IMG/VR virus record: IMGVR_UViG_3300020577_006811
Location: 1 to 64,000 of that record
From: a virus
Taxonomy: Duplodnaviria; Caudoviricetes
DNA length: 64,000 bases
Direction: 5' to 3' (one strand)
Shown here: positions 5,571 through 29,491 of the stretch, piece by piece
Position numbering within the stretch: the first letter of the stretch is position 1
How the letters are laid out: every line of letters begins with the position of its first letter
Notes under the pieces: generated by a model
Told to the model about the DNA's origin: nothing
What the model saw: the letters and a program-made list of their open reading frames with translations, nothing else
Database searches by the model: none
Made by a program: the position numbers and the translations under genes

Positions 5571-5918
5571 TCATGCCAGATGTAAAGGCATTCCGCGCCA
5601 CCGCCTTAGGCGAAAACGGCCTTCTAAGAAGGGCCTGTTTTGGCCGTTGCCGCGCAAAATGGTTTCATCGGATTGATCGGGTACGGCTCCAAACAGGCTA
5701 GTTGGAGGGGGAAAGATCATCCAGGCGTACTCAGAACCAAGGTAGGAATCGACAGCCGTTGAAGCCCCTTCCAGCTTAAGCGGCGCCGTTCCGAGCAATG
5801 AAAGAGGGTTGATAATCTTCGCCGGAAGGACGGATACCGGCATCAGACTGCTTGCCCGGACAATTGCCGGTGCGGCAAGGAAACCAAGCGCACCTGTCAG
5901 CAGGCCTCTACGGTTCAT
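5571..5918 (-). CDS. twin-arginine-leader protein carrying a major capsid protein fragment
   Basis: MNRRGLLTGALGFLAAPAIVRASSLMPV leader; LLGTAPLKLEGASTAVDSYLGSEYAW matches MCP 28563-28640 at 11/26 ungapped; AGGAG RBS. Confidence 0.75.
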   Translation of the reverse strand: MNRRGLLTGALGFLAAPAIVRASSLMPVSVLPAKIINPLSLLGTAPLKLEGASTAVDSYLGSEYAWMIFPPPTSLFGAVPDQSDETILRGNGQNRPFLEGRFRLRRWRGMPLHLA

Positions 5919-5928
5919 ACTAGCTCTC

Positions 5929-6138
5929 CTAAGACGCTATGGCGGTGTACGTCGCCACCGCAGCCAAGCCTACGATGCTCGCAAACAGCACCACCATGGC
6001 GACCATGCGAATGTTGGTGCAGACGTTGACGACGTCCCGCTGCTGGCTTGCCGTAGACACCGCCTGCGCGCACAGCATGAACAGCAGCGACCAAAACGCG
6101 GTCAGTCCAAGTAGCATCATCAACTTGGTGGCGGTCAT
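5929..6138 (-). CDS. small two-TM membrane protein
   Basis: Two hydrophobic stretches. Confidence 0.6.
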   Translation of the reverse strand: MTATKLMMLLGLTAFWSLLFMLCAQAVSTASQQRDVVNVCTNIRMVAMVVLFASIVGLAAVATYTAIAS

Positions 6139-6455
6139 ACCGAACCCACCCGAAAGAACGTCGGTATGTCGCCGGAAGCCGCGACCGCGTCCGACGCATT
6201 CGCGACCTCTATGCCAATCTCCTTGAACTTGGTTTTTGATGTCCCGCCAATGTCAACCCACTCAGCGACATGGTTCCCATATTGGTCAAATCCGGAGACC
6301 AACACTGCGCCAGCGCGGCCGGTCTTGTACGGCAGCGGCAGGATCGCGCGAGTTTCCACGGGCAGCACCGACACCGGCATCAGGCTGGAAACCCGGACGA
6401 TGGCAGGGGCGGCAAGCAAGCCAGCAACCCCAGTCAGAAACCCCCTACGGTTCAT
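6135..6455 (-). CDS. twin-arginine-leader protein carrying a fragment of the virion domain found in 30627/32424
   Basis: MNRRGFLTGVAGLLAAPAIVRVSSLMPV leader; VSGFDQYGNHVAE...FKEI resembles VVGYDLYGYPMSE...FKYI; ATGA overlap with the upstream gene. Confidence 0.75.
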   Translation of the reverse strand: MNRRGFLTGVAGLLAAPAIVRVSSLMPVSVLPVETRAILPLPYKTGRAGAVLVSGFDQYGNHVAEWVDIGGTSKTKFKEIGIEVANASDAVAASGDIPTFFRVGSV

Positions 6456-6748
6456 GGCTTCACTTCCCGCGCTTTCAGCATCTCGTCCGCAAGCCGGTAG
6501 CAGGTCTCGGCGACCAACTCGTTGCTCCACCCGCCGTTCGCCCGCGCTGACGCCGAAATCACATGGCCCATGGCCTGCCCAGCCAGCCAATCGCGAATCG
6601 ACATCCCAGTGTGGCCCGGGTCGTGGTAACTGCCGCCGCTTCCGTACCAACGGCCTTGTCCTGGATCAGGAATGGCTGAGGTTGTCGTTTGCGGGACGTA
6701 CTGCGTTGCAGGCCGCGGGAACGCCGGGCCGCCGTCGTGCTGTGTCAT
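6452..6748 (-). CDS. conserved phage protein (DGGPAFP...GMSxRDxxAxxAM family)
   Basis: DGGPAFP and GMSIRDWLAGQAM motifs. Confidence 0.8.
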   Translation of the reverse strand: MTQHDGGPAFPRPATQYVPQTTTSAIPDPGQGRWYGSGGSYHDPGHTGMSIRDWLAGQAMGHVISASARANGGWSNELVAETCYRLADEMLKAREVKP

Positions 6749-6758
6749 CAGTTTTACC

Positions 6759-6941
6759 CTACGTGTTGGTCTTCATCTTCACAAATCCCGCGCGGACGGC
6801 ATCCAATAGCGCTGGACGGATCAGCCCCATGACAACCTCATCAAGGTTGTCACCATGCAAGCCCGTGTTTCTGAGTTCCCTGATCATGCGCCACACCTCA
6901 GACGGTAGTTGCACGACATTTTCCTCAATTCTGCCGGCCAT
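6759..6941 (-). CDS. hypothetical protein
   Basis: GGAG RBS, in operon. Confidence 0.55.
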   Translation of the reverse strand: MAGRIEENVVQLPSEVWRMIRELRNTGLHGDNLDEVVMGLIRPALLDAVRAGFVKMKTNT

Positions 6942-6951
6942 CGTCGCTCCG

Positions 6952-7209
6952 TTACTTTTGATTGACGCGGATAGTGATGCCGCCCGTTTCCGGGTTGGCT
7001 TCCTTGGTCAATGTGGCGTCCGCCGACAAGATCAAATCTAGGTGTGACACCTCAACCTTGCCGCCGCACGCAAGCACCACGGCTGCCAACGCGCGCCGCG
7101 CCTCTACCTCGTGCTGGCGTAGCTTCTCATCCATGATCTGAACCGCACGCGCGCCATCAGAAAGCGCGCGGTCGTAGTCCCGTTCAGCTTGCTCTAGCGT
7201 TCGCATCAC
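6952..7209 (-). CDS. hypothetical protein
   Basis: GGAGG RBS, start overlaps the upstream stop. Confidence 0.65.
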   Translation of the reverse strand: MMRTLEQAERDYDRALSDGARAVQIMDEKLRQHEVEARRALAAVVLACGGKVEVSHLDLILSADATLTKEANPETGGITIRVNQK

Positions 7210-7391
7210 GTCGCCTCCCCTTGCGTCTGCTGCGTTTGGGCTCGCTCCTTTAGCAGCCGGTACGCGTGCGGCTCAGAAATGTTGAACCGCCGCCGCGCGT
7301 CGCGCACCTCTACACCGCTGTCAATGCACCGGAAGAACCGGGCCCGCTCCTTGTCCGTCAGTTTCCCCCTGTCGCGGTCATGCGCTGTCAT
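7206..7391 (-). CDS. small HTH DNA-binding protein
   Basis: VRDARRRFNISEPHAYRLL helix-turn-helix pattern. Confidence 0.6.
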   Translation of the reverse strand: MTAHDRDRGKLTDKERARFFRCIDSGVEVRDARRRFNISEPHAYRLLKERAQTQQTQGEAT

Positions 7392-7414
7392 GGCTTTCTC
7401 TCTCTCATTTACCT

Positions 7415-7942
7415 TCACCAGTATTCCGGAAACCGAAGATCCGGGCCGTATTCCTCCGTCAGGAGTTCGTCGCACAGTTCGGCGTAATATGCCGGGTCTT
7501 CCGTCTTCCAATCTGCCAACGTCATGCATTCGTGGCAGACAAGCTCATCGTCGGGCAGCACATAGTAATCGCTAGGGTCGCATTCATCCCAGTTGCAGCG
7601 CTCGCACGTGCCCATCCAGCCGGCAATGCGATGCGCTTCATTGCGCCCAGTCGTTTCCAGCTTATCGTCTAGGGCCTTGACGCGATGCCCCTCGGGAGCG
7701 CCATAGCATTCGCAGTCCTCTGGCGTGCAGCCTTCGCAAGAGCCGCGCTCGTCCATCCATTCCAGCATCGCGTCGCGAAGCGTCGGCGCGCGCAGCAACT
7801 GCCAGTCTCGGCCACTCTCTGTGCCGATAGCCCACACAGGGTGCAAAACGGGTGGCGCCACAGGCGCGGCAGCCACTGCAGTCGGCACAAGCGGCAATGC
7901 AGCGCCGGCTGCGGCCCCAATTAGAAATTGCCTGCGGTCCAT
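7415..7942 (-). CDS. twin-arginine-leader, Cys-rich protein
   Basis: MDRRQFLIGAAAGAALPLVPTAVAAAP leader; CEGC, CERC and CHEC motifs. Confidence 0.75.
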   Translation of the reverse strand: MDRRQFLIGAAAGAALPLVPTAVAAAPVAPPVLHPVWAIGTESGRDWQLLRAPTLRDAMLEWMDERGSCEGCTPEDCECYGAPEGHRVKALDDKLETTGRNEAHRIAGWMGTCERCNWDECDPSDYYVLPDDELVCHECMTLADWKTEDPAYYAELCDELLTEEYGPDLRFPEYW

Positions 7943-7950
7943 AAGCGCCC

Positions 7951-8106
7951 TCACTTCTTGCCCGCTTCGCGCAAGGCGGCGGCAACTCGTTCCTCAACGT
8001 GCTTGACAAAACACGTTGGATGAAAGGCGTGCCCTGGTTCTCGCAACGGGGTTTCCCAAGACAAGAAGGCAAGCCTGCAATGAGTACAAACTTCGGTCTG
8101 CTGCAT
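7951..8106 (-). CDS. small Zn-binding protein (51 aa)
   Basis: Manual translation MQQTEVCTHC...FHPTCFVKH; CxxC...HxxC. Confidence 0.5.
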   Translation of the reverse strand: MQQTEVCTHCRLAFLSWETPLREPGHAFHPTCFVKHVEERVAAALREAGKK

Positions 8107-8151
8107 TCCGCTTCCTTTCTGCGCCTATAAATGACAATTTACGGGAAAATG

Positions 8152-8394
8152 TCAGTTCGGCTGCGTTCCCGCGCGCATGGTTTCCCGGCCCTCGCCAATA
8201 GCGATGCCCTCATCAACGCCGCGCTCGTACCCAAGCTCGTATGCCTCCTTTGCCAGATCCCGCACGAACTGGCGCCAGTAGTCCTTCTGCGCCTCAGTGT
8301 AGTGCTGGGTGCCGTCCGGCTTCTTCAGCCACTCGCCGCCGTTGTTGCCCTTGGCCGCGCGGATCGCCAGCGCCTCAATCTCTTCGTCGGTCAT
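8152..8394 (-). CDS. hypothetical protein
   Basis: ATG 8394 overlapping the upstream stop. Confidence 0.6.
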   Translation of the reverse strand: MTDEEIEALAIRAAKGNNGGEWLKKPDGTQHYTEAQKDYWRQFVRDLAKEAYELGYERGVDEGIAIGEGRETMRAGTQPN

Positions 8395-8594
8395 GGCTTT
8401 CTCTCCTCGCAATACGCCAGCGGGTACGGCGCCTTCGCATGCCACCCACAAACCTTCCGACCGTCCCGCTTCGTCGTCACACCGTGCCCGCACCGGCCAC
8501 GGTTCACCGTCAAAGCCTCGCACCGACCTTTCCGGTACATGTGCCGGCGGGGTGGCACCCAGAACTCGTCTTCCAACTCGTCAAACTCAGACAC
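8391..8594 (-). CDS. small Cys/His-rich protein
   Basis: RCEA...GRCGH...VCGWH motif. Confidence 0.55.
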   Translation of the reverse strand: MSEFDELEDEFWVPPRRHMYRKGRCEALTVNRGRCGHGVTTKRDGRKVCGWHAKAPYPLAYCEERKP

Positions 8595-8597
8595 GTC

Positions 8598-8963
8598 TCA
8601 CCCCAACAGTATCTTTCTAGCCTCATTCACCCGAGCTGCCAGATAGTCCGACCCTCCGGTGTCCGGGTGCACACGCTGCATCATCTTGCGGTATGCCGTC
8701 TGCACCGCCTCGCGCCCGGCGCCCGGCGTAAGTCCTAAAGCAGAGTACGCCTCGTCTCGGGTCATCTTGGCGCCCTTAAAGACCACACGCTCAACGATTT
8801 TGACCTTCTCTTGCACCTTGACCGCAGCGTCGTGGTTGGAAACCCGCACCAAAGCCATGAACAAGGCAAACAAGCCAACCAGCTCGTGACCAGTGTTCAT
8901 TAAGTACACCCCAAGCGTGAAGCCAGGCAGAAAGATCACGCCAAGGATCAGAACGACAATCAC
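8598..8963 (-). CDS. membrane-anchored J-domain (DnaJ-type) protein
   Basis: Two N-terminal TM segments, then EAYSALGL...AYRKMMQRVHPDTGGSDYLAARVNEARKIL with an intact HPD. Confidence 0.85.
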   Translation of the reverse strand: MIVVLILGVIFLPGFTLGVYLMNTGHELVGLFALFMALVRVSNHDAAVKVQEKVKIVERVVFKGAKMTRDEAYSALGLTPGAGREAVQTAYRKMMQRVHPDTGGSDYLAARVNEARKILLG

Positions 8964-9127
8964 GGCTTCCGCCCTTTCACAGGCACCGGAATGAACGCCC
9001 GGCACTTCTCCTGATCACCACGCTGAAAGTCCGCGTAGGTCTGCCACTCCCCAGGCGTCGCCTTGAAACGGTAGCATCCATCTCGCGACGGGCAGTTCTT
9101 GTCCTCGCACATCGCCACGTCAGGCAT
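8960..9127 (-). CDS. conserved small Cys-rich phage protein
   Basis: MPDVAMC....CP....CYR motif. Confidence 0.7.
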   Translation of the reverse strand: MPDVAMCEDKNCPSRDGCYRFKATPGEWQTYADFQRGDQEKCRAFIPVPVKGRKP

Positions 9128-9247
9128 CACCACTCCCTCACCCACACCAAGCACCGGCCCGGCACGTCGCCCATCATCTCCCGGACCACGCACCGAGGCT
9201 GAGGCAGCGCAATCCACGCGTAGGCAACCAAGATCCGCATGGGCCCG

Positions 9248-9406
9248 TCACCTTTCGTTTACGTCCGTCGCTTTCCATGGCCCTTTGTCCGTATCGCCCT
9301 GCCACCAATCGGACCAAACCATAGCCCTTTGATGCAGCCAGCCCCACTGGCAGCGGTAGGCCATGTCACCAATCCAGAAGCAAATCCAAGCCATCGCCCA
9401 GCGCAT
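9248..9406 (-). CDS. small Trp-rich protein (52 aa)
   Basis: Manual translation MRWAMAWICFWIGD...GPWK; GAGG RBS. Confidence 0.5.
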   Translation of the reverse strand: MRWAMAWICFWIGDMAYRCQWGWLHQRAMVWSDWWQGDTDKGPWKATDVNER

Positions 9407-9418
9407 ACCCGACCTCTT

Positions 9419-9604
9419 TCACTCCGTTATCTTCATCGCCGCGCGGGCGCTCCAGTACAGAGGCCAGACAATGCCGACGTATGCAGCAACCGCGCCCGGA
9501 AACGGCTCTTGAGGTGTCCTCTGGTGCTGATACCAGTACGCTCCGGTCAGCATCGCCGCGCAGTAGTACGCCGCCAGTAGGCCAATGACCGCTCGTTTGC
9601 GCAT
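9419..9604 (-). CDS. small membrane protein
   Basis: Two hydrophobic segments. Confidence 0.6.
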   Translation of the reverse strand: MRKRAVIGLLAAYYCAAMLTGAYWYQHQRTPQEPFPGAVAAYVGIVWPLYWSARAAMKITE

Positions 9605-9605
9605 G

Positions 9606-10139
9606 TCAGCGTCTCCCCAACTCTCGAAACGCCTCAGCCTGCCGCATCAGTTCTTCCAACTCAGGCGTCATCCGCTCCGGCGACAATGGGGGAAACGGCA
9701 GGATGGGCGTCGGCTTGGCTACAGAAACAAGTTCTAGCCGCCGCTCGTCCGCAAGACGATGTTTCAGCGCACCAAGCTTCTCTTCCGCATCCAACGCCCT
9801 TTGCACTAAAGCCCTGGTCGATCTTTTTACCCGAGCGGCAGTGACGGGACGCCTTGGTTGCATGCTCGGGTCGATTTCGCCAAGATGCTCCATGGCAGGC
9901 GTTGACGCGATGTAATCTAGTAACGGCTGAATTGGCCGGAACCACTCCCCTCGCACGCGGGCATGAGCAAAACGCCTATGCAAGTCTTGTTCTTGACGGC
10001 GAGTCCCGGGCATAACCAAAAGCAATTCCAACTCAACCGGCGACGCCGTCAAAAGGCTGCTGAATCGCGTTGCTGGTGCTCGCGACACGCCAATCTTGAT
10101 AAGATTGTCGCCCCCGCAGGCTTGGATGAAATAGATCAC
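9606..10139 (-). CDS. GIY-YIG superfamily (T5orf172/MUG113-like) protein
   Basis: IYFIQ...IKIGVS...RFSSL...EQDLHRRF...GEWF signature. Confidence 0.85.
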   Translation of the reverse strand: MIYFIQACGGDNLIKIGVSRAPATRFSSLLTASPVELELLLVMPGTRRQEQDLHRRFAHARVRGEWFRPIQPLLDYIASTPAMEHLGEIDPSMQPRRPVTAARVKRSTRALVQRALDAEEKLGALKHRLADERRLELVSVAKPTPILPFPPLSPERMTPELEELMRQAEAFRELGRR

Positions 10140-10172
10140 GTGCCGACGTTCCTATGTGCGTGTGCTTCAGCT

Positions 10173-10424
10173 TCAAGCGGGCGCTTTGGTTTTTTGCGGC
10201 CACCGCCATTTGATGTCTGCTTGCTGCATTAGCTTGCGCATGGTGCCTGGGTGGCGCATCGGACGCTCCCCCTGCTCCCAATTCTCAATTGATCTGACGG
10301 TGACGCCGAGATAGTCGGCGGCATCCTTTTGCGTGTAGCGCATGAACTTCCGCCATGCTTTCAACTCGTCCGGAGAAACCGGTTGAGCCGTCTTCGCTTT
10401 GGGTCTAAGTCTTGTTTTCCGCAT
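10173..10424 (-). CDS. XRE-family HTH transcriptional regulator
   Basis: LKAWRKFMRYTQKDAADYLGVTVRSIENWEQG. Confidence 0.9.
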   Translation of the reverse strand: MRKTRLRPKAKTAQPVSPDELKAWRKFMRYTQKDAADYLGVTVRSIENWEQGERPMRHPGTMRKLMQQADIKWRWPQKTKAPA

Positions 10425-10462
10425 GATGCATCATTGCATCCCCTTAGGGGGGCGTCGAGTTC

Positions 10463-10480
10463 GTTGGCAAACTTGCCAAC
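10463..10480. promoter_or_regulatory. palindromic putative operator
   Basis: GTTGGCAA-AC-TTGCCAAC immediately downstream of the leftward -10 element. Confidence 0.5.
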
Positions 10481-10483
10481 ATA

Positions 10484-10512
10484 TAAATACGGTATCCCTC
10501 ATTGGGGTACAA
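10484..10512 (-). promoter_or_regulatory. putative sigma70 promoter for the leftward operon
   Basis: Minus strand TTGTAC-N17-TATTTA. Confidence 0.5.
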
Positions 10513-10855
10513 GAAAAATCGCCACGCTTTCCTAACTGCGCTCATAAATGCCAGTTTAAGGGTGCCGTTAGGAAAACGGCTAGCGAAAACAAACCCGTGT
10601 TGTATCAAGGCGTTACAAATTCCGTCATTCGCCAATGAGGGACTTGTTGAAAACCACGCCCCGCGCCCTCACACCCACCGCCAGCGGCCGATCTCCGTCT
10701 CAAACGCCCCGCCGTCTTTGCCCTCGACCCGCCCGCCGCCGCCCGCAAACCCTGCGCCCGCAGCATCCGCTTGAGCCCCGTTTTGAAGGTTGCACCCGCC
10801 CCTCGAAGCCCCGCTAAAGCTAGTCAAAAAACCACCCCGCGCCCACCCTTTCCAA

Positions 10856-10884
10856 TTGCCTTTCCCGGGGAAAACTGGCATATT
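10856..10884 (+). promoter_or_regulatory. putative sigma70 promoter for the rightward operon
   Basis: TTGCCT-N17-CATATT; palindrome TTTCCC-G-GGGAAA overlaps the spacer. Confidence 0.45.
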
Positions 10885-10938
10885 CTCTATGGTCGCTTCC
10901 GCTTCCCTCACGGACCCGGCCCTCTCTCCAGATGCATG

Positions 10939-10976
10939 AACCCCCGCTGCCCGTCACAGCGGGGGTTTTGCTGTTT
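10939..10976 (+). terminator. intrinsic terminator upstream of the first rightward gene
   Basis: Perfect 11-bp stem AACCCCCGCTG/CAGCGGGGGTT followed by TTGCTGTTT. Confidence 0.6.
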
Positions 10977-11084
10977 ATGGCCCTCGCTTCTGAACCCGCA
11001 CACACCGCAAAGCCCTTACCCCGGCAGCCAACCAGGCGGACGCTCAAGAAGCGAGGGTCGCCCCTCTCGCCCAACGGAGCGCCC

Positions 11085-11249
11085 ATGGCCCAGCCCCTCG
11101 GTCTCATCTGGCTCGCACAGCTCGCCGCCGGTACAATCACCCCCGAGCAGATCGCCGCGCGCTGGCAGATGACTGTGGACGAAGTCACTCGCATCCTTGA
11201 CGTGACCCGCCAGCGCTTCCCCGCCTCTCCCAAATCAGTTATCCACTGA
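11085..11249 (+). CDS. small HTH-like protein
   Basis: GGAG RBS; TPEQIAARWQMTVDEVTRIL. Confidence 0.55.
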   Translation: MAQPLGLIWLAQLAAGTITPEQIAARWQMTVDEVTRILDVTRQRFPASPKSVIH

Positions 11250-11274
11250 CTTCGCAGTCTGGCGTTCAGAAAAC

Positions 11275-11577
11275 GTGAGCGCCGCTATGCCTATGCAACC
11301 CTCCCGCGACATTGACTGCTACGTGGACGCCATCCTTGAGCGCGCCGACCAGGCCCTCAAAGCCGCGCACTTCATCCGCTACCGCAACAAAGAGCGCCTG
11401 TCGGATGACCAGATGGCCGAGATCGGCATCATCCATCTGAACATGGTTTCGCTCCTCGCCAGCCTCACCGACGGCGAGGCCTACGGCGCCGCCGACGACA
11501 GCGTGATCTACGCCCTCCGCGGCTTTGAATGCGACGCCGACGCCCTGCTCCGCGAAGAGAAAGGCATGCTCTCATGA
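11275..11577 (+). CDS. hypothetical protein
   Basis: GC3-rich codon usage, in operon. Confidence 0.65.
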   Translation: MSAAMPMQPSRDIDCYVDAILERADQALKAAHFIRYRNKERLSDDQMAEIGIIHLNMVSLLASLTDGEAYGAADDSVIYALRGFECDADALLREEKGMLS

Positions 11578-11783
11578 AGTTTCGCCCGCTGGTGTCCTCC
11601 AACCTTGAAGCCTGCCACTACGACGAAGCGACGAAAACGCTGACCGTGAAGTTCAAGGGCGGCGGGACTTACGCCTACGGCGGCGTGGTCAAAGACCACT
11701 ATCAAGGCCTGCTGGACGCGAAGTCGGCCGGCAAGTTTTTCCACGGCACCATCCGCAAGAAGTACAAGCACGAGAAAGTGTAG
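11574..11783 (+). CDS. KTSC-domain protein
   Basis: SSNLEACHYD...LTVKFKGGGTYAY...LLDAKSAGKFFH. Confidence 0.9.
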   Translation: MKFRPLVSSNLEACHYDEATKTLTVKFKGGGTYAYGGVVKDHYQGLLDAKSAGKFFHGTIRKKYKHEKV

Positions 11784-11837
11784 CGGCACCAATTATGTCC
11801 CACTTAAAAAGGATTTTGGTTCAGGGCAGTAATTGAC

Positions 11838-12458
11838 ATGACGAAGAAGAGTTCTGCGCCGAAATCGACAAGTTCAATGCCTGCCGTTGTGGAAGAAAAG
11901 CCCGCATCGGTCGGGCGCCCGTCGTCGTTTCAAGAAGAGTACATTGTGCAGACGCAAAAGCTCTGCGCCCTTGGTGCAACAGACGAAGAAATAGCCGATT
12001 TTTTTGACATTTCGCGGCGAACGTTGAGCCGCTGGAAAACGACGTACCCAGAATTCGTGGAAGCTCTGCGTCGCGGCAAAGACGCAGCCGACGACCGTGT
12101 TGTGGACAGCTTGTACCACCGGGCGCTTCCGCGCGAGGTTGAAGAAGAGCAGGCCATCAAACTGAAGAAGGTCATCTACAACGAACAAGGCAAGCGCGCG
12201 AGCGAAGAAGAGCGCGTTGAGATTGTGAAGGTCCGCAAGTTCATGCCGCCTGACACGACAGCGATGATCTTCTGGTTGAAGAACCGTCGCCCAGATCAAT
12301 GGCGCGATGTGCACAAGCATGAGCACGGCGCGGCCGGTGCGTTCAGTTCAATGCCTGAAGAGGAATTGGACAAGTTCATCCTTGAGAACATGAAAGACGT
12401 TACGCCGTTCTTGGATATGTCCGTCCTCAAAGTTGAGGAAGAAACCGATGAGGGCTAG
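11838..12458 (+). CDS. terS: terminase small subunit
   Basis: GRPSSF...GATDEEIADFFDIS..TL.RW...PEF; PPDTTAMIFWLKNR. Confidence 0.85.
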   Translation: MTKKSSAPKSTSSMPAVVEEKPASVGRPSSFQEEYIVQTQKLCALGATDEEIADFFDISRRTLSRWKTTYPEFVEALRRGKDAADDRVVDSLYHRALPREVEEEQAIKLKKVIYNEQGKRASEEERVEIVKVRKFMPPDTTAMIFWLKNRRPDQWRDVHKHEHGAAGAFSSMPEEELDKFILENMKDVTPFLDMSVLKVEEETDEG

Positions 12459-12482
12459 CAACCAACCATTGGAGATGCGGCC

Positions 12483-12674
12483 ATGAGCCATACGACCGAG
12501 AAACCGCCTGCGGGCTACGTGGCGCTGCCGAAGGGCGCGAAGTGCCGGTGCCTGCTGCTCTGGGACGATGGTGATGGGAATTACTATTGCTGCAAGGAAG
12601 TGGGCGCGCTGCGGGGCTTGCCACCGAAGAAAAAGAACGGGAAGATTGTAATGAGGCAGGTGACGGTAGATTGA
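12483..12674 (+). CDS. hypothetical protein
   Basis: GGAG RBS; Cys-rich. Confidence 0.5.
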   Translation: MSHTTEKPPAGYVALPKGAKCRCLLLWDDGDGNYYCCKEVGALRGLPPKKKNGKIVMRQVTVD

Positions 12675-12686
12675 CGGGGGCGAGGG

Positions 12687-13073
12687 ATGACGGCGGATCG
12701 GTGGGCGCAGACGAAAGCCGATGTGTTGCGGCGGTGCGCGGAACGCACAGAGGCGGCGAAACTGAGGGCGAACAAGCCGGCGCTGGATTCCCCGAGGGCA
12801 ATTGCCGAATTGCAGCGCTTGTGGCGCATGCGGGCCCTGACCATGGTTGGCGTGGCTGAACGGTGGTCAGCGTTTCTAGGGGTGACGCTGTCGGTGCATC
12901 AGGTGCGGGCGTTTGCGAAAGCGCGCCGCGCTGAGTTTCCCGACCGCCGCGCGCTCAACTACGGTGTGGTGTCCTACAGCCCACCGCGCAGTCGATTTCG
13001 CCAGCGGATGTTTGTGGACGAGGCGCTGCAGGACCAGCAGTTTGACGTGCTTGATGCACGCGATGTGCTGTGA
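12687..13073 (+). CDS. hypothetical protein, possible GcrA-like HTH
   Basis: GAGG RBS; basic helical sequence; family call weak. Confidence 0.5.
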   Translation: MTADRWAQTKADVLRRCAERTEAAKLRANKPALDSPRAIAELQRLWRMRALTMVGVAERWSAFLGVTLSVHQVRAFAKARRAEFPDRRALNYGVVSYSPPRSRFRQRMFVDEALQDQQFDVLDARDVL

Positions 13074-13501
13074 CCTCCGTCGGCTTCACCGGCACGCAGG
13101 CGGGCATGACCTCGGCGCAGCAGATGCGCCTCATGCAGTTGCTGCGTGGGAGGCAGATCGAGTTTCACCACGGGGATTGCATTGGCTCTGATGCCGAGGC
13201 CCACGAGATCGCGCGGGTGTGCGGCGCGCGGATTATCATCCACCCGCCGTTGAACCAAGCAAAACGCGCCCTGTGCCTTGGCGGCGACGTGCTACCGCCG
13301 AAAGCCTATCTCACCCGCAACCGGGACATTGTCCGCGCCACGGGACGCCTGATCGCGGCGCCAAAGGAAAGCTGTGAGGAACTACGCTCGGGCACGTGGA
13401 TGACCGTGCGGTTTGCGCGTACACTCGGGCGGCCGATTTGGATCTTGTGGCCTGACGGGGCCTGCCGCGTGGAAAACGCACCTGAGGAGATCGCAGCGTG
13501 A
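13070..13501 (+). CDS. SLOG-family protein
   Basis: VGFTGTQ...HHGDCIGSD..AH...RNRDIV...SGTWMTVRFA. Confidence 0.85.
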   Translation: MTSVGFTGTQAGMTSAQQMRLMQLLRGRQIEFHHGDCIGSDAEAHEIARVCGARIIIHPPLNQAKRALCLGGDVLPPKAYLTRNRDIVRATGRLIAAPKESCEELRSGTWMTVRFARTLGRPIWILWPDGACRVENAPEEIAA

Positions 13502-13803
13502 GCAAATTGAGCGAAATGCCCCCAGGCGACGTGGTCGCGCGCGCCGATGCCGAGCGCATGGCCGCAGCCGAATTGCTCGCAAACGCGCGCCAAGCCCTCG
13601 GCAACTACTGGCTCAAACTGGCCGAGTGGCACATTGAGCAGGGCGAACTGGCCATCGCGGAGCAGATCGTCAACGCCACAGACGAGGTTCTGCGCCTCGT
13701 GGCGCCGTCCGAAATCATGGACACGGTGCGGCTGAAGGCCGTAGGCATTGCACTGCCGCAGCCGCCCAAGCCGCCGGGAAGCCACCTGAAGCTGGTGTCG
13801 TAA
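13498..13803 (+). CDS. hypothetical protein
   Basis: GGAG RBS, start overlaps the upstream stop. Confidence 0.65.
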   Translation: MSKLSEMPPGDVVARADAERMAAAELLANARQALGNYWLKLAEWHIEQGELAIAEQIVNATDEVLRLVAPSEIMDTVRLKAVGIALPQPPKPPGSHLKLVS

Positions 13804-13815
13804 GAGAGGGAAGAC

Positions 13816-14007
13816 ATGACCACAGACCCCCGCATCTTGCAGGCCGTCGTCAACGGATGGCGCAACGGCAAGCCGATCTGGTTCATCATGGCTGCGTGCA
13901 GGTTCCCAACCCCAGCCGACTGCATGGACGTCGTGCGCTATCTGCAACTGCCTGAGCGCAGCCCGACGACTTGCGAAATTTTCCTGCCTGAGGAGCCCAT
14001 CACGTGA
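13816..14007 (+). CDS. hypothetical protein
   Basis: GAGG RBS. Confidence 0.55.
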   Translation: MTTDPRILQAVVNGWRNGKPIWFIMAACRFPTPADCMDVVRYLQLPERSPTTCEIFLPEEPIT

Positions 14008-14255
14008 CCGAGCCCCAGTTTGAAGCTGACGTACAGGCGCAAGCCACAGGCATGATCAACGCCATCAACAGAGCGCTGGAAACCTACTCAGAGACAGCAC
14101 CTGACGGCGTTGGAGCAGCTGCAGTTCTCGGCGCACTTGCTATGGTCGCTGGCGACATCATCAGCCAAGCGCCCGAGCCCGAAGTCGCCCGCAGCGCCTA
14201 CGAGAACTTTGAGCGCATTCTGCTGGCCCGCGCTGGCTTGGAGACGAACTCATGA
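14004..14255 (+). CDS. hypothetical protein
   Basis: GAGGAG RBS, start overlaps the upstream stop. Confidence 0.65.
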   Translation: MTEPQFEADVQAQATGMINAINRALETYSETAPDGVGAAAVLGALAMVAGDIISQAPEPEVARSAYENFERILLARAGLETNS

Positions 14256-14391
14256 ACTCGTTTTCATATACCGCCATGAGCGTGAAGTACCCGCCGCGAT
14301 TCTCCGACCTTCAAAAGGTGGCCCAGTGGTGCGGCGCTGCCGCCAAGGCGTACGCCGAGGCTGAGGCCAACCGCAATCAGCAGGCCGCCTA

Positions 14392-14850
14392 ATGCTCTCC
14401 CGCCGCCACCTTGCGTCTGCCGCCGCAGCGCTCATCGGCGCTGTTGGCCTTGCGCGCCCAACGCAGGCGGCTCTCGCGGATCAAGACGACGACTTCACCT
14501 TCCTCCAGGCCAAGCGCGCGCAGCTCCTAGCCGCGACGCACGAAGCCGGTCAGCGCGATCCCTACGGCCGCGAGGTGGACATTCAGCGCGTGGTGCCAGG
14601 TGATCTTGAGCTTGTGGTCCAGTCCTGCAACGGTCTTGACCGCAAGACACGTTATGCCCTGATCCCGATTGATGCCTTGCGCGAGGACTTCAAGGCCGCG
14701 TGGTTCCGCGCCATCGCGCACGTGCTGCCGCCGCTGGAGAACACAGACATTCCAGCGTGGTCTGCGGCCAAGTTCTATGATGATGTGCCGCCGGCCGGCT
14801 GGGAAGTGGTGGGCGAATCCGAGAGCCACGTCATCTGCAAGAAGGTCTAG
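14392..14850 (+). CDS. twin-arginine-leader protein
   Basis: MLSRRHLASAAAALIGAVGLARPTQAA leader with an AxA-type cleavage site. Confidence 0.7.
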   Translation: MLSRRHLASAAAALIGAVGLARPTQAALADQDDDFTFLQAKRAQLLAATHEAGQRDPYGREVDIQRVVPGDLELVVQSCNGLDRKTRYALIPIDALREDFKAAWFRAIAHVLPPLENTDIPAWSAAKFYDDVPPAGWEVVGESESHVICKKV

Positions 14851-15155
14851 GCCCTCAAAGCCGCAAGCCGCTTGGCCTCTGACTCTTGCACAGCCGCCGT
14901 CGGCTTCTGCATCAAGATCAAGCCGTGCGTCTCAATCGCTTCCTCAACGGTGCTGACCGGCGCACCCGGATGTTCCGTCGGTGCCACAAACGTCCACCCG
15001 TTGTCCAGCCGCGCCTGCACGTTCGCCGGGTCCGCGTTACCCAAAAGCGCCGTGCGTACCCACTGATACGTGGTGCCGTCCGGCGCCTTGATGGACCATG
15101 GGTCGTGCCCAGCAGCCCAGCCAGAAACCCACGACGGGTCAAATCTACCATGCAT
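14847..15155 (-). CDS. paralogue of head-region protein 26667-27299; RRGFL leader lies in an overlapping frame
   Basis: PDGTTYQWVR...G..DP...GW..V...PG...GLILM matches 26667; a second frame from ATG 15151 encodes MVDLTRRGFLAGLLGTT. Confidence 0.65.
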   Translation of the reverse strand: MHGRFDPSWVSGWAAGHDPWSIKAPDGTTYQWVRTALLGNADPANVQARLDNGWTFVAPTEHPGAPVSTVEEAIETHGLILMQKPTAAVQESEAKRLAALRA

Positions 15156-15741: not shown

Positions 15742-18672
15742 ATGCACGCGCCTGCCGATCTCCGCCAGAGGAAGGAACGCATCGCCGCGCTTATCTACGA
15801 AAAGCGCAAGCGGGAAAACCGCATCGTTATGGAAGACAGCCTCTACGAGTTCACGCGCGCGGCGTGGTCTTCCATTGAGAGCAGCACCTTCCAAGACAGT
15901 TGGGCCATTGAGGCGCTGTGCGAGCACCTGCAGGCCGTTACCTACGGCCACATCAAAAGATTGCTTATAAATTTCCCGCCGAGATGCGGCAAGCCGGTCG
16001 CGCACGACAGCCTTGTGCTCACGCGGGCTAAAGGGTTGGTTAAAATTGATCAGATTATCGTCGGGGACGAGGTTCTGACTCACAAGGGCAATTGGAAGCC
16101 AGTAACTGCCGTCCACCGCCAGGGCGTGCTGCCAATATTGCGTGTGCATACTGCTGGAGGCCGCATGGTAGAAGCTGCGCCAGACCACCCGTTTTTGACG
16201 CCTAATGGGTGGGTGGAGGCTGGCGCCCTTATGGTTGACGATGTATTGGGCATCGTACCTCCGCAATCGCCGTGCGGACGAAACTCCATACCTTTAGAGG
16301 AGGCCCGTTTGCTCGGGTACTTTGTTGGCGACGGGCATTGTGGCGGCACGCCAAACATCACATGCGCGGATGACGACATAGCGGCCGACATCATCCATTG
16401 CATCCGTGCGACCGGATTCGTTGCCGCCGACCAGTCGTATCGCATGGCGAATACCGGATACATGCTTCGCCGTATATCAATGAAGCCAATTAGCCACGCA
16501 AAGGAGCGCCGGCACAAAGGCTACAAAGGGCCCGTTCGGCAATGGCTGGCGGACCGTGGCCTAGACCATCAGTCATCATACACAAAGATGGCGCCATCTA
16601 GCATCATGGAGGGCTCGGATGACATCGTGGCCGCTTTCTTAGGGGCCTATTGGTCCTGCGATGGGTTTATCACAGCGAGAGGAAGAAAGGGCGACGGCGT
16701 CGAACGGACCGACCTGCAAATTGGTTGTGACAGCGTCAACCAAGCGTTCATGCGACAGGTTCAGACATTGTTGGCTCGTCTCGGGATAAACTCGCATGTC
16801 CGGACCAAGGTCAACAAGAAGCTCAAAACCAAGCGGCAAGGCGACCAATACGTTTCTTATAGCTTGACCCTCCGCTCGCAAGACGACTGTTATCGTTTTG
16901 CCCAACGCATCAAGCTAAAGCATTCCAAGCGCTTTAAGCTGGAATACGAATACAAACGCCGGTTTGATTTTGACCGCCCCATATGGGGTGAAGTGATTGT
17001 TTCCGTTGAAGAGGCTGGTGAGAAAGAATGCTTATGCCTTACTGTGGCTGATGATGAAAGTTTCACGGCTAACGGATTTGCCGTGCACAACAGTTCAGTC
17101 GCATCCATATGCTGGCCGGCTTGGACATGGGCGCAGCCTGAAGAGCGCCGCTCGTTCGTATGTGGCCCAGGCACGCAGTTCCTTACGGCGTCGTACAATC
17201 ACGCGCTATCCTTGAAACTCAGCACTGCCAGCCGGCGCCTGATCCTCTCGCCGTTCTATCAAGAGTATTGGGGTGACCGGTTTAAGCTTGCAGGCGACCA
17301 AAACTCTAAAACTCAGTACGACACGGACCAGGGTGGCACGCGCATATCTACGTCAATCGGTGGTAGTCTTATCGGTATCGGCGGTGCGGTACTACTAGCG
17401 GACGACCCCCACAACACAGAGTCCGTCGAAAGCGAAGCCGAGCGCGAGACTGTGCTTCGTTGGTGGAAGGAATTCAGCAGCACGCGCCTCAACGACCCGA
17501 ACGAGTCTGCCATCGTCGTGGTCATGCAGCGACTGAACGAGGCTGACGTCAGCGGCGTCATCCTTGAAAGCTCGCGCGACTGGACGCACCTCATGCTGCC
17601 AATGCGCTACGACGAAACGCGCCATTGCCGCACGGTCATTGCCCCCGGAAAGTTTTGGGAAGATCCCCGCAAGGATACAGGCGAATCCTTGATGTGGCCG
17701 GAGCGCTTCGGCGCGCAGAAGGTCAAGGAGATGGAAGACGATCTTGGGCCGTACATGGCGTCCGGTCGTCTCCAGCAGCGTCCGTCTCCGCAGGGCGGTG
17801 GCATTCTCAAGCGCGAATGGTGGAAGACTTGGGAAGAGCCAGAGTACCCGTACTGCTACTATAAGTGGGCGTCTGCCGACACGGCTTATACGGAAGCCGA
17901 AGAGAACGACCCCACGGGTTTTACGGTCTGGGGGCTCTTTGAGATTGCGCACCAGCCGCACATCATCCTCATGGATGCGTGGCGCAAGCGATTGGAACTG
18001 CACATTCCGCAGCAATGGGAAGACAAAGACGGCACCCCATCCAGCCGATTGGAGCAGGTCAAGTCGTGGCAGCGTGCAGCGTGGGCTCAATACAAAGCCA
18101 TGCAACAAGCACAGCAGGGTATGAAGCCGCCGCAGATTTCGCCCGAGTTGGAGCCGTGGTCCACGTACATCCATTACGGCATCAGCAACGCCGACCGCTG
18201 GCCCGACGAAACCTACGAGATGTGGCGACTGCGCACACAGGAGAAGTGGGGTCTGTGCGAATGGATCGCGCATTCGTGCAGGCGCTTCAGCGTCAACGAA
18301 CTTCTGATTGAGGCTAAGGCGACCGGCATCACAGTCGCTCAAGAGCTTCGGCGGCTGAATGGCAACGATGGCTGGGGCATTCAACTAAAGACTCCGCAGG
18401 GCGACAAGGTCGCACGTGCCTATGCGGTGCAAAGCACGCTAAGCTCCGGGCTCGTATATGCGCCAGACAAAGCCTGGGCCGATCTTGTGCTTGAGGAAAC
18501 CAGTTCGTTTCCCAAACACCGCTATAAAGATTTGACCGATTCTACCTCAATGGCGTGGCTTCACGTCCGCGAGATGGGCATGTTGACTAGACCTGAAGAA
18601 CGGTTGCTTGCCGAGCAAATGGCCGCACAATACCGGCCGCAAACCGCCCCACTTTACCCAGGATCGCGATGA
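15742..18672 (+). CDS. terL: terminase large subunit (intein-interrupted)
   Basis: Spliced Walker A LINFPPRCGK|SSVAS; Walker B LLADDPH; VVMQRL; QQRP; C-terminal nuclease SADTAY / IEAKATG / DLTDSTS. Confidence 0.95.
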   Translation: MHAPADLRQRKERIAALIYEKRKRENRIVMEDSLYEFTRAAWSSIESSTFQDSWAIEALCEHLQAVTYGHIKRLLINFPPRCGKPVAHDSLVLTRAKGLVKIDQIIVGDEVLTHKGNWKPVTAVHRQGVLPILRVHTAGGRMVEAAPDHPFLTPNGWVEAGALMVDDVLGIVPPQSPCGRNSIPLEEARLLGYFVGDGHCGGTPNITCADDDIAADIIHCIRATGFVAADQSYRMANTGYMLRRISMKPISHAKERRHKGYKGPVRQWLADRGLDHQSSYTKMAPSSIMEGSDDIVAAFLGAYWSCDGFITARGRKGDGVERTDLQIGCDSVNQAFMRQVQTLLARLGINSHVRTKVNKKLKTKRQGDQYVSYSLTLRSQDDCYRFAQRIKLKHSKRFKLEYEYKRRFDFDRPIWGEVIVSVEEAGEKECLCLTVADDESFTANGFAVHNSSVASICWPAWTWAQPEERRSFVCGPGTQFLTASYNHALSLKLSTASRRLILSPFYQEYWGDRFKLAGDQNSKTQYDTDQGGTRISTSIGGSLIGIGGAVLLADDPHNTESVESEAERETVLRWWKEFSSTRLNDPNESAIVVVMQRLNEADVSGVILESSRDWTHLMLPMRYDETRHCRTVIAPGKFWEDPRKDTGESLMWPERFGAQKVKEMEDDLGPYMASGRLQQRPSPQGGGILKREWWKTWEEPEYPYCYYKWASADTAYTEAEENDPTGFTVWGLFEIAHQPHIILMDAWRKRLELHIPQQWEDKDGTPSSRLEQVKSWQRAAWAQYKAMQQAQQGMKPPQISPELEPWSTYIHYGISNADRWPDETYEMWRLRTQEKWGLCEWIAHSCRRFSVNELLIEAKATGITVAQELRRLNGNDGWGIQLKTPQGDKVARAYAVQSTLSSGLVYAPDKAWADLVLEETSSFPKHRYKDLTDSTSMAWLHVREMGMLTRPEERLLAEQMAAQYRPQTAPLYPGSR
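15994..17091 (+). mobile_element. intein (366 aa) with LAGLIDADG homing endonuclease
   Basis: Starts PVAHDSLV after GK; block B AAPDHPF; LLGYFVGDGH and FLGAYWSCDGF; ends SFTANGFAVHN|S. Confidence 0.92.
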
Positions 18673-19430: not shown

Positions 19431-19506
19431 GTCACGGTACCCCAACGGTAGAGGGCCCGGCCTCAAACCCCGGTCAGTGTCCGTTCGAATCGGACCCGTG
19501 ACACCA
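19431..19506 (+). tRNA. tRNA-Leu(CAA), short variable loop
   Basis: Acceptor GTCACGG/CCGTGAC; loop CT-CAA-AC; T arm GTCCG-TTCGAAT-CGGAC; A73; CCA. Confidence 0.8.
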
Positions 19507-19510
19507 TCAC

Positions 19511-19587
19511 ACTCGTCTGGCGGAATTGGTATACGCGGTGGGCTTAAACCCCACGTCATGATCCCGGTTCGAACCCGGGGACGAGTA
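19511..19587 (+). tRNA. tRNA-Leu(TAA)
   Basis: Acceptor ACTCGTC/GACGAGT; GTGGG-CTTAAAC-CCCAC; no encoded CCA. Confidence 0.85.
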
Positions 19588-19588
19588 C

Positions 19589-19678
19589 GGGAAGGGTTCC
19601 CCTCAGCGGTCTGTAAAACCGCCGGCTTTGAAAGAGAGGGGTGGCTGCCTAGAGGATCGTAACCTCCCCAACCCACCA
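19589..19678 (+). ncRNA. non-canonical tRNA-like RNA, anticodon GTA (Tyr-like)
   Basis: GGGAAGGG/CCCAACCC acceptor, GCGGT-CTGTAAA-ACCGC arm, GAGG-ATCGTAA-CCTC T arm, ACCA end; no canonical D arm. Confidence 0.7.
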
Positions 19679-19681
19679 TTT

Positions 19682-19756
19682 CGGCCTGTGGTGTAACGGT
19701 CAGCACCCTCGGCTCATAACCGAGTTGTGTGGGTTCAAGTCCCACCGGGCCAACCA
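19682..19756 (+). tRNA. tRNA-Met(CAT), initiator-like
   Basis: C1:A72 mismatch; CTCGG-CTCATAA-CCGAG; CCA. Confidence 0.9.
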
Positions 19757-19913
19757 TCTAAGTAGATTGCCCTTGCAATGTCTCGCGCACCATGCCATGC
19801 AGGGCCATGGACACGACGATCACAACACGACGACCGAGACGGCCACGGCGACCCGCCAGGTAACGTCCGCATTCCGTGTTGTGCGCATCGCGCGCAAATC
19901 CTCCATCATTATA

Positions 19914-19988
19914 GCTGGTTTAGCTCAGCGACAGAGCAGCGGTTTTGTAAACCGAAGGCCGTGGGTTCAAATCCTACAACCAGCACCA
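19914..19988 (+). tRNA. tRNA-Thr(TGT)
   Basis: GCTGGTT/AACCAGC; loop TT-TGT-AA; CCA. Confidence 0.9.
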
Positions 19989-19992
19989 AACC

Positions 19993-20068
19993 GCGCACGT
20001 GGCCCAATGGATAAGGCGTCGGTCTACGGAACCGAAGATTGCAGGTTCAAGTCCTGCCGTGCGCTCCA
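19993..20068 (+). tRNA. tRNA-Arg(ACG)
   Basis: GCGCACG/CGTGCGC; TCGGT-CTACGGA-ACCGA; CCA. Confidence 0.95.
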
Positions 20069-20073
20069 CCTTT

Positions 20074-20152
20074 CAGCGCGTAGGGAAGTCTGGTCGTTCC
20101 CGCCTGCCTTGGAAGCAGGAAACCGCTGGTTCAAATCCAGCCGCGCTGACCA
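20074..20152 (+). tRNA. tRNA-Pro(TGG)
   Basis: CAGCGCG/CGCGCTG; CCTGC-CTTGGAA-GCAGG; CCA. Confidence 0.95.
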
Positions 20153-20156
20153 CTTT

Positions 20157-20232
20157 GCACGCCTAGCTCAGCGGATAGAGCGCTGGTTTCCGAAACCAGA
20201 GGACGCAGGTTCGACCCCTGCGGCGTGCTCCA
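20157..20232 (+). tRNA. tRNA-Arg(CCG)
   Basis: GCACGCC/GGCGTGC; CTGGT-TTCCGAA-ACCAG; CCA. Confidence 0.95.
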
Positions 20233-20238
20233 CAGACT

Positions 20239-20321
20239 GCGCAAGTAGCCGGTTCCGGCTTCTACCCGGTTATCCGTAATTGGAGCTGAAAATGAGGGTT
20301 CGAATCCTTCCTTGCGCGCCA
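20239..20321 (+). ncRNA. non-canonical tRNA-like RNA, probable anticodon TCT (Arg-like)
   Basis: Perfect GCGCAAG/CTTGCGC acceptor, CCGG-CTTCTAC-CCGG arm, GAGGG-TTCGAAT-CCTTC T arm, GCCA end; no canonical D arm. Confidence 0.7.
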
Positions 20322-20353
20322 AACAAAAACGGCGGGGCCTTTCGGCACCCGCC
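20322..20353 (-). terminator. intrinsic terminator between the convergent tRNA groups
   Basis: Minus strand GGCGGGTGCC-GAAA-GGCCCCGCC followed by GTTTTTGTTT. Confidence 0.65.
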
Positions 20354-20446
20354 TGAGTTGGGATAGAGCTGAGCCCTGATCTCAGCGCACCCACTCTAAC
20401 CGCAGCGGCGTTGCACGCCTACAAGATCGCGGCGGTTCTCCACAGA

Positions 20447-20520
20447 TGGCAGCCCCTCCCCGAGTTGAACGGGGCCTTACGCAGTCAAAGTGCGTCGTCA
20501 TACCGATAGACCAAGGGGCC
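20447..20520 (-). tRNA. tRNA-Gln(TTG)
   Basis: GGCCCCT/AGGGGCT; ACGCA-CTTTGAC-TGCGT; G73; CCA. Confidence 0.9.
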
Positions 20521-20522
20521 GC

Positions 20523-20596
20523 TGGACGAGCGCCGGGGAATTGAACCCCGTACCACCGATTTGCAGTCGGCTGCGTCACCGTCCCGCCCGCGCTCG
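20523..20596 (-). tRNA. tRNA-Cys(GCA)
   Basis: CGAGCGC/GCGCTCG; GCCGA-CTGCAAA-TCGGT; U73; CCA. Confidence 0.9.
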
Positions 20597-26666: not shown

Positions 26667-27299
26667 ATGGCCACCCGCACCGCCCGTCCTGCCGCCGCTG
26701 AGCCCGCCCGACAGGCCCCCGCCGCCCCGCCGCCCGACCGCGAACCCGCGCGCGCCGAAGCCCGCGAGGCCGTCAACACGGGACCCATCATCCCAGGCCG
26801 CGCCGTTGCCTACAACCGTGCCGGCATGCCGATCCAGCGTGCAGGCGCCGAAACCGGCGTGGACGAGTTCTTCATCCCGCCGCACCTGCCCCCCGCCGGC
26901 TGGTCCTGGGAATGGAAGCGCGAGAGCAACCGCGGCGAAACCGACCCCTTCTACATGAGCAAGCTCATGCAGGTCGGCTGGGAGCCCGTCATGTACGAAA
27001 GCTACCCCGGCGTCTTCGCGCCCGTCTACGACGACCAAGGCAAGGAAATGAAGGGCCCCGTTCGCCGCAAGGGCCTGATGCTTATGGAGCGCTCGGCCGT
27101 TCTGACCGAGGAAGCGTTTCTGGACGAAAAGCGCCGCGCGGACGAACGGGTCGGCACCGCCAAGCACCAGTACAGCCGTCTGGATACCGGCGGCACGTCC
27201 ACAGTCGAGATTGACGACGCGGCCCGCCGGATGTCCGGCATCCGGACTACGCGCGAGGTTGTCGATTATCCGCCCGGTCAACGTCAGCGGATTGAATGA
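26667..27299 (+). CDS. conserved head-region protein
   Basis: PAGWSWEWKR...G..DP...GWEPV...GLMLMER; AGGAG RBS. Confidence 0.75.
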   Translation: MATRTARPAAAEPARQAPAAPPPDREPARAEAREAVNTGPIIPGRAVAYNRAGMPIQRAGAETGVDEFFIPPHLPPAGWSWEWKRESNRGETDPFYMSKLMQVGWEPVMYESYPGVFAPVYDDQGKEMKGPVRRKGLMLMERSAVLTEEAFLDEKRRADERVGTAKHQYSRLDTGGTSTVEIDDAARRMSGIRTTREVVDYPPGQRQRIE

Positions 27300-29324: not shown

Positions 29325-29491
29325 CAAAAATGGGGCTGAGAGCATGTACCGCTCTCAGCCCAATCCTCTAATATCGCAAACTGACCTGCTCACGGTAAAT
29401 TAACAATTAAAGTCGAAGGAGGCCTTGTCCTGATATGGGTGCGGCTATACACATATCTCTGTCGGTAGACCGCCCATCGAAAGGAACGCCC

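Follow-up and report, generated by a model that had tools for sequence, protein, structure and literature searches.

Why should a phage put an export-type leader in front of short pieces that resemble its own virion proteins? This question was raised by a locus in IMG/VR virus record IMGVR_UViG_3300020577_006811, of which the first 64 kb of 82 kb was analyzed (the window, meaning this whole stretch of 64,000 nucleotides). A sequence-only reading of the window had proposed five small genes with RRxFL-type leaders, and had matched three of them to structural proteins of the same genome. Two of these genes, leader genes A and B (Table 1), and a decayed third are, as far as their sequences indicate, members of a two-module accessory family of phage mini-proteins. 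In this family a leader of about 30 residues is joined to tails that are mosaics of virion-protein copies.

Two genes of the window share one leader

The proteins of leader genes A and B were 79% identical over their first 34 residues, and the remainder of the two was unrelated. A 30-position leader profile seeded by these two proteins was run against their own genome. It found exactly these two (E = 3e-30 for A and 4e-26 for B), and neither the 7415 nor the 14392 gene. The start codon of A lies in an ATGA overlap with the upstream open reading frame (ORF), and an AGGAG site is located 6 nt upstream of the start of B.

The five leaders first proposed were thus reduced to one family with two members. 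The 7415 and 14392 genes turned out to have unrelated signal-like N-termini, and the leader at 15151 was a truncated, out-of-frame fossil.

The 7415 protein, signal included, was 62–69% identical in relatives. Its n-region reads RRQFL, and it scored 17.7 bits against the Pfam TAT_signal family (cutoff 22.7). No match to its Cys-rich tail was found among the virion-module proteins.

The signal-like N-terminal extension of the 14392 protein was specific to its lineage and missing from relatives. Leaderless relatives of 198–209 residues are encoded next to the small terminase gene in two other loci (L090, 6569–7165, minus strand; L087, 5832–6461, minus strand). These have an LLPGLY-type capsid N-terminal motif and a region like residues 217–286 of the major capsid protein (MCP; hhalign 91%, E = 1e-6). 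When the 14392 protein was compared directly with the capsid family, no significant MCP match was obtained. It is a shorter homologue of the leaderless proteins, to which a signal-like N-terminus has been added.

The fossil leader overlaps the 14847 ORF in another frame. The 14847 gene is a presence/absence cassette: DNA contigs of two studies skip 289 bases, joining 14846 to 15136 with GGCT inserted. In locus L018, a domain of the type found in head-region protein 26667 is fused in frame to a complete leader (GTG at 6802), and a separate native head-region gene is present too. Because of this in-frame version, the best reading of the 14847 ORF is that its leader has decayed and that the domain persists as a gene without one. 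A programmed frameshift at 15100 was also considered and was ruled out; no slippery heptamer occurs, and the entire invariant core of the leader is missing from the frame-B peptide.

The leader is a large, phage-restricted peptide family

A word-indexed search with the protein of leader gene A found 43 proteins, most of them alike only in the first 30 residues or so (70–90% identity) and with unrelated tails. A scan of IMG/VR gave 121 confirmed places for the leader. Eighty IMG/VR loci were kept and, together with the window, contained 84 leader ORFs, one to three per locus. The 30-position profile was then run against 1.84 billion representatives. It matched 10,567 of them at E ≤ 1e-3; at E ≤ 1e-10, 1,504 protein clusters were left. 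Almost all came from phage or metagenome contigs. The best 150 of these matches were all 39–250 residues long, and the leader was nearly always within the first 40 residues. That a reusable leader module has been grafted repeatedly onto virion-protein fragments, as the sequence-only reading held, found support far outside the window in these clusters and in tails matching capsid, portal and fibre proteins.

Among 67 distinct leaders, RR, P, I, V and M were invariant, and G, two A, R, S and P were at least 90% conserved. The pattern is RR-G-F-L, a Gly/Ala-rich hydrophobic stretch, and then APAIVR-A-x-S-LMP. The conserved positions use every synonymous codon family, including both Ser, both Arg and both Leu sets, and the ratio of nonsynonymous to synonymous substitution (dN/dS) was about 0.05. 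Since synonymous sites are saturated, the leader is constrained as a peptide and not as DNA. A mobile leader element acting at the DNA level was ruled out on the same ground.

A single search pattern found only six leader loci in 185,579 species genomes, all on contigs of metagenome-assembled genomes. With 121 places in IMG/VR against these six, the family is phage-restricted, and its near-absence from bacterial genomes counts against a prophage-type role in superinfection. All-against-all clustering of 2,010 ORFs found no conserved partner gene within 10 kb of the leader genes. Literature searches with leader motif strings and with the combination of Tat, capsid and phage found no relevant published description of this very large family of phage mini-proteins.

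The tails are mosaics of virion proteins

The tails consist of copies, 15–65 residues long, of segments of MCPs, portals and tail fibres, and the copied proteins are often encoded by the phage itself. When the tails were compared by tblastn with all fetched loci, many matched far larger genes, frequently in their own phage. An ORF of at least 250 residues was matched by 31 of 125 tails, against 42 of 1049 control small ORFs (Fisher p = 2e-13). The expectation that tails match virion proteins above chance was also borne out within loci: a large gene of the own locus was matched by 17 of 84 tails and by 11 of 1049 controls (Fisher p about 1e-13).

The targets included major head proteins (phrog_283, 334, 212, 1357 and 371), portals (phrog_156 and phrog_332) and tail-collar fibres. 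Capsid matches fell mostly in the first 80 or the last 30–50 residues of the MCP, and some were internal. A further 147 tails were obtained from the profile search; 20 of them matched a small target set, and several were mosaic, for example with a piece of a capsid C-terminus ahead of a piece of a portal. When 77 tails were scanned against PHROG, only tail-collar families were detected, because the tail fragments are too short for profiles.

Against the proteins of the window, 19 of 255 tails reached E < 0.01, and 4 reversed controls did so. The matches tile MCP residues 6–37, 50–76, 104–127, 136–155, 225–256 and 272–302, and two segments of the portal (Table 1), the latter copied in the tails of P0005, P0007, L001 and P0006. 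Over the tails of this and other phages taken together, the second and fifth of the MCP segments extend over residues 48–77 and 225–257. The AlphaFold model of the MCP (predicted local distance difference test score 78) resembles HK97-type capsids. On this model the copied segments are the N-arm, the tip and return strand of the E-loop, the spine helix, and the later strands to the C-terminus. The tails retain residues that are conserved in the parent families in these parts. Their similarity to the capsid protein of the resident phage was about equal to their similarity to others.

The C-termini of 119 leader proteins (loci L001–L080 and database proteins) were also inspected. They ended in A-A or A-S in 13% (3% in control small ORFs) and in Ala in 27% (11% in controls), which is reminiscent of C-terminal degradation tags.

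Virion matches within the window

Of the three matches to virion proteins proposed for the window, those of leader gene B to the MCP and of the 14847 ORF to protein 26667 stood, and that of leader gene A to the domain of proteins 30627 and 32424 was marginal.

The tail of B was 11/26 identical to MCP residues 51–76. This match was non-significant by composition-corrected tblastn against the entire window. Among seven virion-module proteins, blastp gave the MCP at E = 4e-5. A hidden Markov model (HMM) of the B family (five members) had the MCP as its top non-self match in the six-frame window (E = 9e-6), and hhalign against a 58-member capsid alignment gave 83% (E = 8.6e-6). The match consists of three collinear pieces, MCP 50–77, 238–257 and 288–302, and the first piece of the tail is like MCP 48–77. 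The tail is a collapsed mini-MCP followed by the conserved C-terminal part RFR..RW.G.PL.L, and resembles a capsid gene that has lost two large stretches from its interior. The capsid-like bead of B was nearest to MCPs of the phage's own clade. It was never more than 14/29 identical to any of them, so the copy is old. A word-indexed homologue search with the tail of B alone found only itself.

The 14847 ORF was 28% identical to protein 26667 over 86 residues (E = 1e-4 to 1e-5). For leader gene A, the family HMM had protein 30627 as its top non-self match, at a marginal E of 0.02, and hhalign gave only 20%. The tail of A has a weak bead like this protein (G.D.YGN..E) and a weak portal-like bead (TR.ILPLPYK). 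The latter was traced by way of P0006, a protein with a portal match of its own (E = 8e-5); through it, the first residues of the A tail resemble portal residues 465–474.

Selection and turnover

The tails are under purifying selection: their dN/dS was 0.14 when two relatives were compared and about 0.45 when relatives were compared with the window, although dS was close to saturated.

The tandem order, A type and then B type, was kept in loci L094 and L095. Loci L087–L089 have only the B type, and L090 and L091 have a different tail at the same place. Natural variants with cassette-sized deletions were found in the accessory operon of the window. The leader genes are therefore accessory, with tails swapped or missing among close relatives.

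In the window, the leader genes are in an early-type minus-strand accessory operon, together with genes for a membrane J-domain protein and a T5orf172 protein. They are on the strand opposite to the head genes, and far from them. In many other phages, the leader genes are part of late head operons. They are located between terminase and portal or directly 5' of the capsid gene, and they overlap terminase, portal or capsid genes at their stop and start codons.

Features of a Tat signal

In the 67 aligned leaders, those of A and B included, the n-region has twin arginines followed by G/S-F/L-L/I. The h-region is 14–15 residues long and Gly/Ala-rich, with a Kyte–Doolittle mean of about 2.1. R21 is present in at least 90% of the leaders and is followed by A/V-x-S or V-R-A, which by inspection gives a basic c-region with small residues at –3 and –1. 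Judged by inspection, these are classical features of a twin-arginine translocation (Tat) signal, and export itself is predicted.

Against the Tat families PF10518 and TIGR01409, leader gene A scored 12.6 and 11.7 bits (cutoffs 22.7 and 16.7), and B gave no match. Family member P0173 scored above the Pfam TAT_signal cutoff (25.2 against 22.7 bits). The longer members of the family bear fragments of ConA-like lectin domains. P0171 (122 residues) and P0173 (250 residues) each have two leader-like stretches in one ORF, together with a Laminin_G_3 (ConA-like) fragment.

A possible role as envelope-targeted mimics

The leader would most simply be a contact with a conserved host machine, since the peptide is conserved across phages with unrelated head genes. 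As a nearly invariant Tat-type signal, this first module would most simply face the TatBC receptor, the inner membrane and the signal peptidase. The second module is a short mosaic of conserved linear segments from capsid, portal, fibre or head proteins of the type that the phage itself has. It would most simply act by mimicry, because the tail tracks the resident virion type and keeps the conserved residues of the parent families. Together, the two would make envelope-targeted mimics, or baits, of unassembled virion proteins. Such baits would compete for whatever recognizes capsid or portal segments, and would tie the partner that they bind to the membrane or to export. The partner diverted by such a decoy would be a host factor, for example an immune sensor or a protease. 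A role in an arms race is the most likely, because the genes are optional, hypervariable and cassette-like; optional genes that can be swapped suggest conflict more than core assembly.

We favor this reading, an envelope-targeted bait or decoy in an arms race, tentatively and with rather less than even confidence. Several observations weigh against it. Both window leaders are below the curated Pfam and TIGRFAM cutoffs for Tat signals, and their export is a prediction from sequence. Two of the three in-window virion matches are weak to modest. The late head-operon location in many phages would suit a part in the assembly of the phage itself just as well. A cytoplasmic decoy needs no leader, and leaderless capsid-derived mini-proteins do occur in relatives. 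These leaderless proteins, and the unexplained export tag on a bait, keep our confidence low.

A more elaborate form of the bait, which we regard as quite unlikely, is bait-and-evict counter-defence. Each tail would present a small set of capsid and portal epitopes and in this way capture the host proteins that recognize them, for instance immune sensors of capsid or portal, or proteases. The Tat leader would then bring the captured protein to the translocon and export it by hitchhiking, or lock it at the membrane. If true, this would be a protein-level decoy system with the export machine of the host as its disposal route.

Other explanations for the two modules

The tails may instead be dominant-negative poisons, which insert into the folding or assembly of capsids and portals of co-infecting relatives or satellites, with the leader dragging the poisoned subunits to the membrane. 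They would then act much as Tab and Tai do, or the truncated Gag p22 of Ty1. The family-conserved residues kept in the tails (N-arm, E-loop, spine helix and C-terminal strand) would suit such fragments, and so would the accessory and hypervariable nature of the genes. Blocking virion assembly is an established conflict strategy (PMC10884400, PMC11364771). However, tails about as similar to the own capsid protein as to others would poison their own phage, and no antidote gene is evident. The genes are also often co-translated with the phage's own head genes, and the family is nearly missing from bacterial genomes and prophages, where the proteins Tab and Tai discussed below live. We consider poisons unlikely, and a bait for a host factor is favored over them because the tails draw no distinction between the resident capsid protein and its relatives. 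The position of many members, which are found between terminase and portal or immediately 5' of the capsid gene and share stop and start overlaps with their neighbors, would be expected of a part in the phage's own morphogenesis or lysis timing. Proheads of phage T4 start on the membrane. Membrane-tethered mimics might likewise nucleate or localize head assembly at the inner membrane, or signal to the envelope how much free capsid protein there is, and mosaic tails that join capsid and portal pieces would fit either task. Presence/absence and tail swapping in close relatives are difficult to reconcile with this, as are the location of the window genes in an early-type operon on the opposite strand, distant from the head genes, and the lack of a universal partner gene within 10 kb. 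We regard it as improbable.

It is also conceivable that only the leader matters, by jamming or hijacking the Tat translocon or by giving rise to a signal-peptide-derived product, and that the tail is stuffer from local partial duplication of any gene that happens to be near. The leader is more constrained than the tail (dN/dS about 0.05 against 0.14–0.45), the length and content of the tail vary without limit, and many leader genes are in structural modules, where duplication would copy structural genes. On the other hand, the tails are under purifying selection and keep parent-family motifs despite saturated dS. Moreover, window-type tails copy capsid and portal genes that are 15–23 kb away, and mosaics of several distant genes are hard to obtain by local duplication. 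This explanation appeared distinctly improbable to us. That the genes are functionless decaying remnants, or artefacts of annotation or assembly, is extremely improbable. The leader at 15151 is indeed a fossil and some matches are weak, but the frames are open with good start sites and under purifying selection, the tandem pair is kept in L094 and L095, the region recurs across at least four studies, and the family counts thousands.

If the envelope-targeted bait is true, many tailed-phage lineages would share a modular device made of a fixed, host-facing export tag and exchangeable self-mimics. It would be a handle for guessing the function of thousands of small "hypothetical" phage genes, and would mean that the Tat pathway serves an unexpected purpose in infected cells. 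The tails would then show which linear capsid and portal segments are "seen" in the cell by immunity, chaperones and assembly partners. For collecting further members, the nearly invariant leader offers a simple search key, and experiments could use it as a ready-made tag.

The window and its other genes

Metagenomes from eight studies, of wastewater, rivers, aquaculture and sludge, contained DNA nearly identical to the window. The leader-gene region recurred almost unchanged in contigs assembled from runs of at least four studies (2020 to 2025), with all or nearly all of the sampled 31-letter words present. No close GenBank phage was found by megablast of the leader-gene region. Likewise, tblastn of protein A and of the bare leader against 50,697 GenBank phage records gave no match, although the low-complexity filter of BLAST may hide some, and no cultured model phage carrying the family was found in the searches of GenBank phage records. 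For expression, no RNA data set was listed as containing the region. Two runs labeled RNA-Seq contain contigs of it and were rated as probably DNA; their raw reads yielded one read.

The features of the window are listed in Table 1. The counterpart of the 69-residue ORF between A and B is missing between the orthologous leader pair of L094 and L095. The J-domain gene is gone from one metagenome contig, which joins 8595 to 9134, and a similar gene is near a leader gene in one other locus only (L073). A 394-residue fusion of HNH/AP2 and endonuclease VII (29435–30619, plus strand) is inserted directly 3' of the capsid gene; in L018, related HNH genes sit after the portal.

Table 1. Positions of the leader genes and of other features in the window
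Feature	Position	Strand	Description
Leader gene B	5571–5918	–	115 residues; leader residues 1–30 (5829–5918)
69-residue ORF	5929–6138	–	Between the leader genes; two hydrophobic stretches; weak sub-threshold FtsK_4TM match
Leader gene A	6135–6455	–	106 residues, ATG at 6455; leader residues 1–30 (6366–6455)
7415 gene	7415–7942	–	Separate family; different RR signal (MDRRQFLIG...) on a Cys-rich acidic domain
J-domain gene	8598–9005	–	Membrane-anchored J-domain protein; PF00226 28.9 bits (cutoff 27.8); same accessory operon
14392 gene	14392–14850	+	152 residues; N-terminus with RR (RRHLA, partial), Ala-rich stretch and AxA, without F-L
14847 ORF	14847–15155	–	102 residues, leaderless, ATG at 15155; copy of a domain in head-region protein 26667
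Fossil leader	15107–15151	–	15 codons (..TRRGFLAGLLG), frame +1 to the 14847 ORF; without the invariant APAIVR..LMP core
Large terminase	15742–18672	+	976 residues; apparent intein-like insertion (from ORF translation)
tRNA array	19431–20596		Between terminase and portal; nine genes: Leu (two), Met, Thr, Arg (two), Pro, Gln, Cys
Portal	21165–23747	+	phrog_1216; residues 96–121 and 465–497 copied in tails of related leader proteins
Head-module protein 26667	26667–27299	+	Domain at residues 76–161 paralogous to the 14847 ORF
MCP	28413–29324	+	303 residues; phrog_371, Mu gpT-like, HK97 fold; source type of the tail of leader gene B
Repeat-domain segment of virion-module protein 30627	31170–31283	+	Residues 182–219; marginal match of the tail of leader gene A

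Comparison with known systems

With the Tat signal peptides of PF10518 and TIGR01409, the leader has in common RR-x-F-L, the Gly/Ala h-region, the basic residue in the c-region and small residues at –3 and –1. In ordinary Tat signals, the h- and c-regions and the first mature residues vary, whereas in the phage family they are almost invariant across thousands of proteins. Tat substrates are usually periplasmic enzymes; the cargos here are fragments of cytoplasmic virion proteins.

Analogies for the tails may be found in several systems. Immunity can sense capsid or portal proteins, as CapRel and Avs do, and the Gol peptide of T4 gp23 acts with the Lit protease. Gol is a short linear piece of an MCP that is by itself an active ligand for a host factor, and in this it would be like the tails; it is, however, part of the capsid gene itself, and the leader family consists of separate, leader-tagged genes. 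The capsid-targeting sequence of the T4 internal proteins, of about 10 residues, directs packaging into the head and is cleaved by the prohead protease, and the internal-protein loci are hyperplastic. It resembles the phage family in that a short conserved sequence heads small accessory cargos that are hypervariable and serve in host conflict, but it is not Tat-like, its cargos are not copies of virion proteins, and no similarity to the leader family was seen by eye. Truncated Gag inhibitors of retroelements, Ty1 p22 and Fv1, are capsid protein fragments kept by selection as regulators or inhibitors of capsid assembly. They differ in being eukaryotic, without an export leader, of a different fold, and single fragments instead of mosaics.

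The closest functional analogies are Tab, from Pseudomonas phage JBD26, and Tai. According to the two reports, they are made by prophages, phage-inducible chromosomal islands and satellites, protect the host, and have a counter-defence partner (PMC10884400, PMC11364771). The PADLOC models gave no match to the leader family, in a 2023 library that may predate Tab and Tai. As described in the two reports, neither Tab nor Tai is export-tagged or a copy of its target; the leader family, in contrast, is found in phage contigs, is nearly missing from bacterial genomes and has no conserved partner gene. What they would share with the leader proteins is that they are small proteins of mobile elements aimed at virion assembly components, encoded by accessory genes of an arms race.

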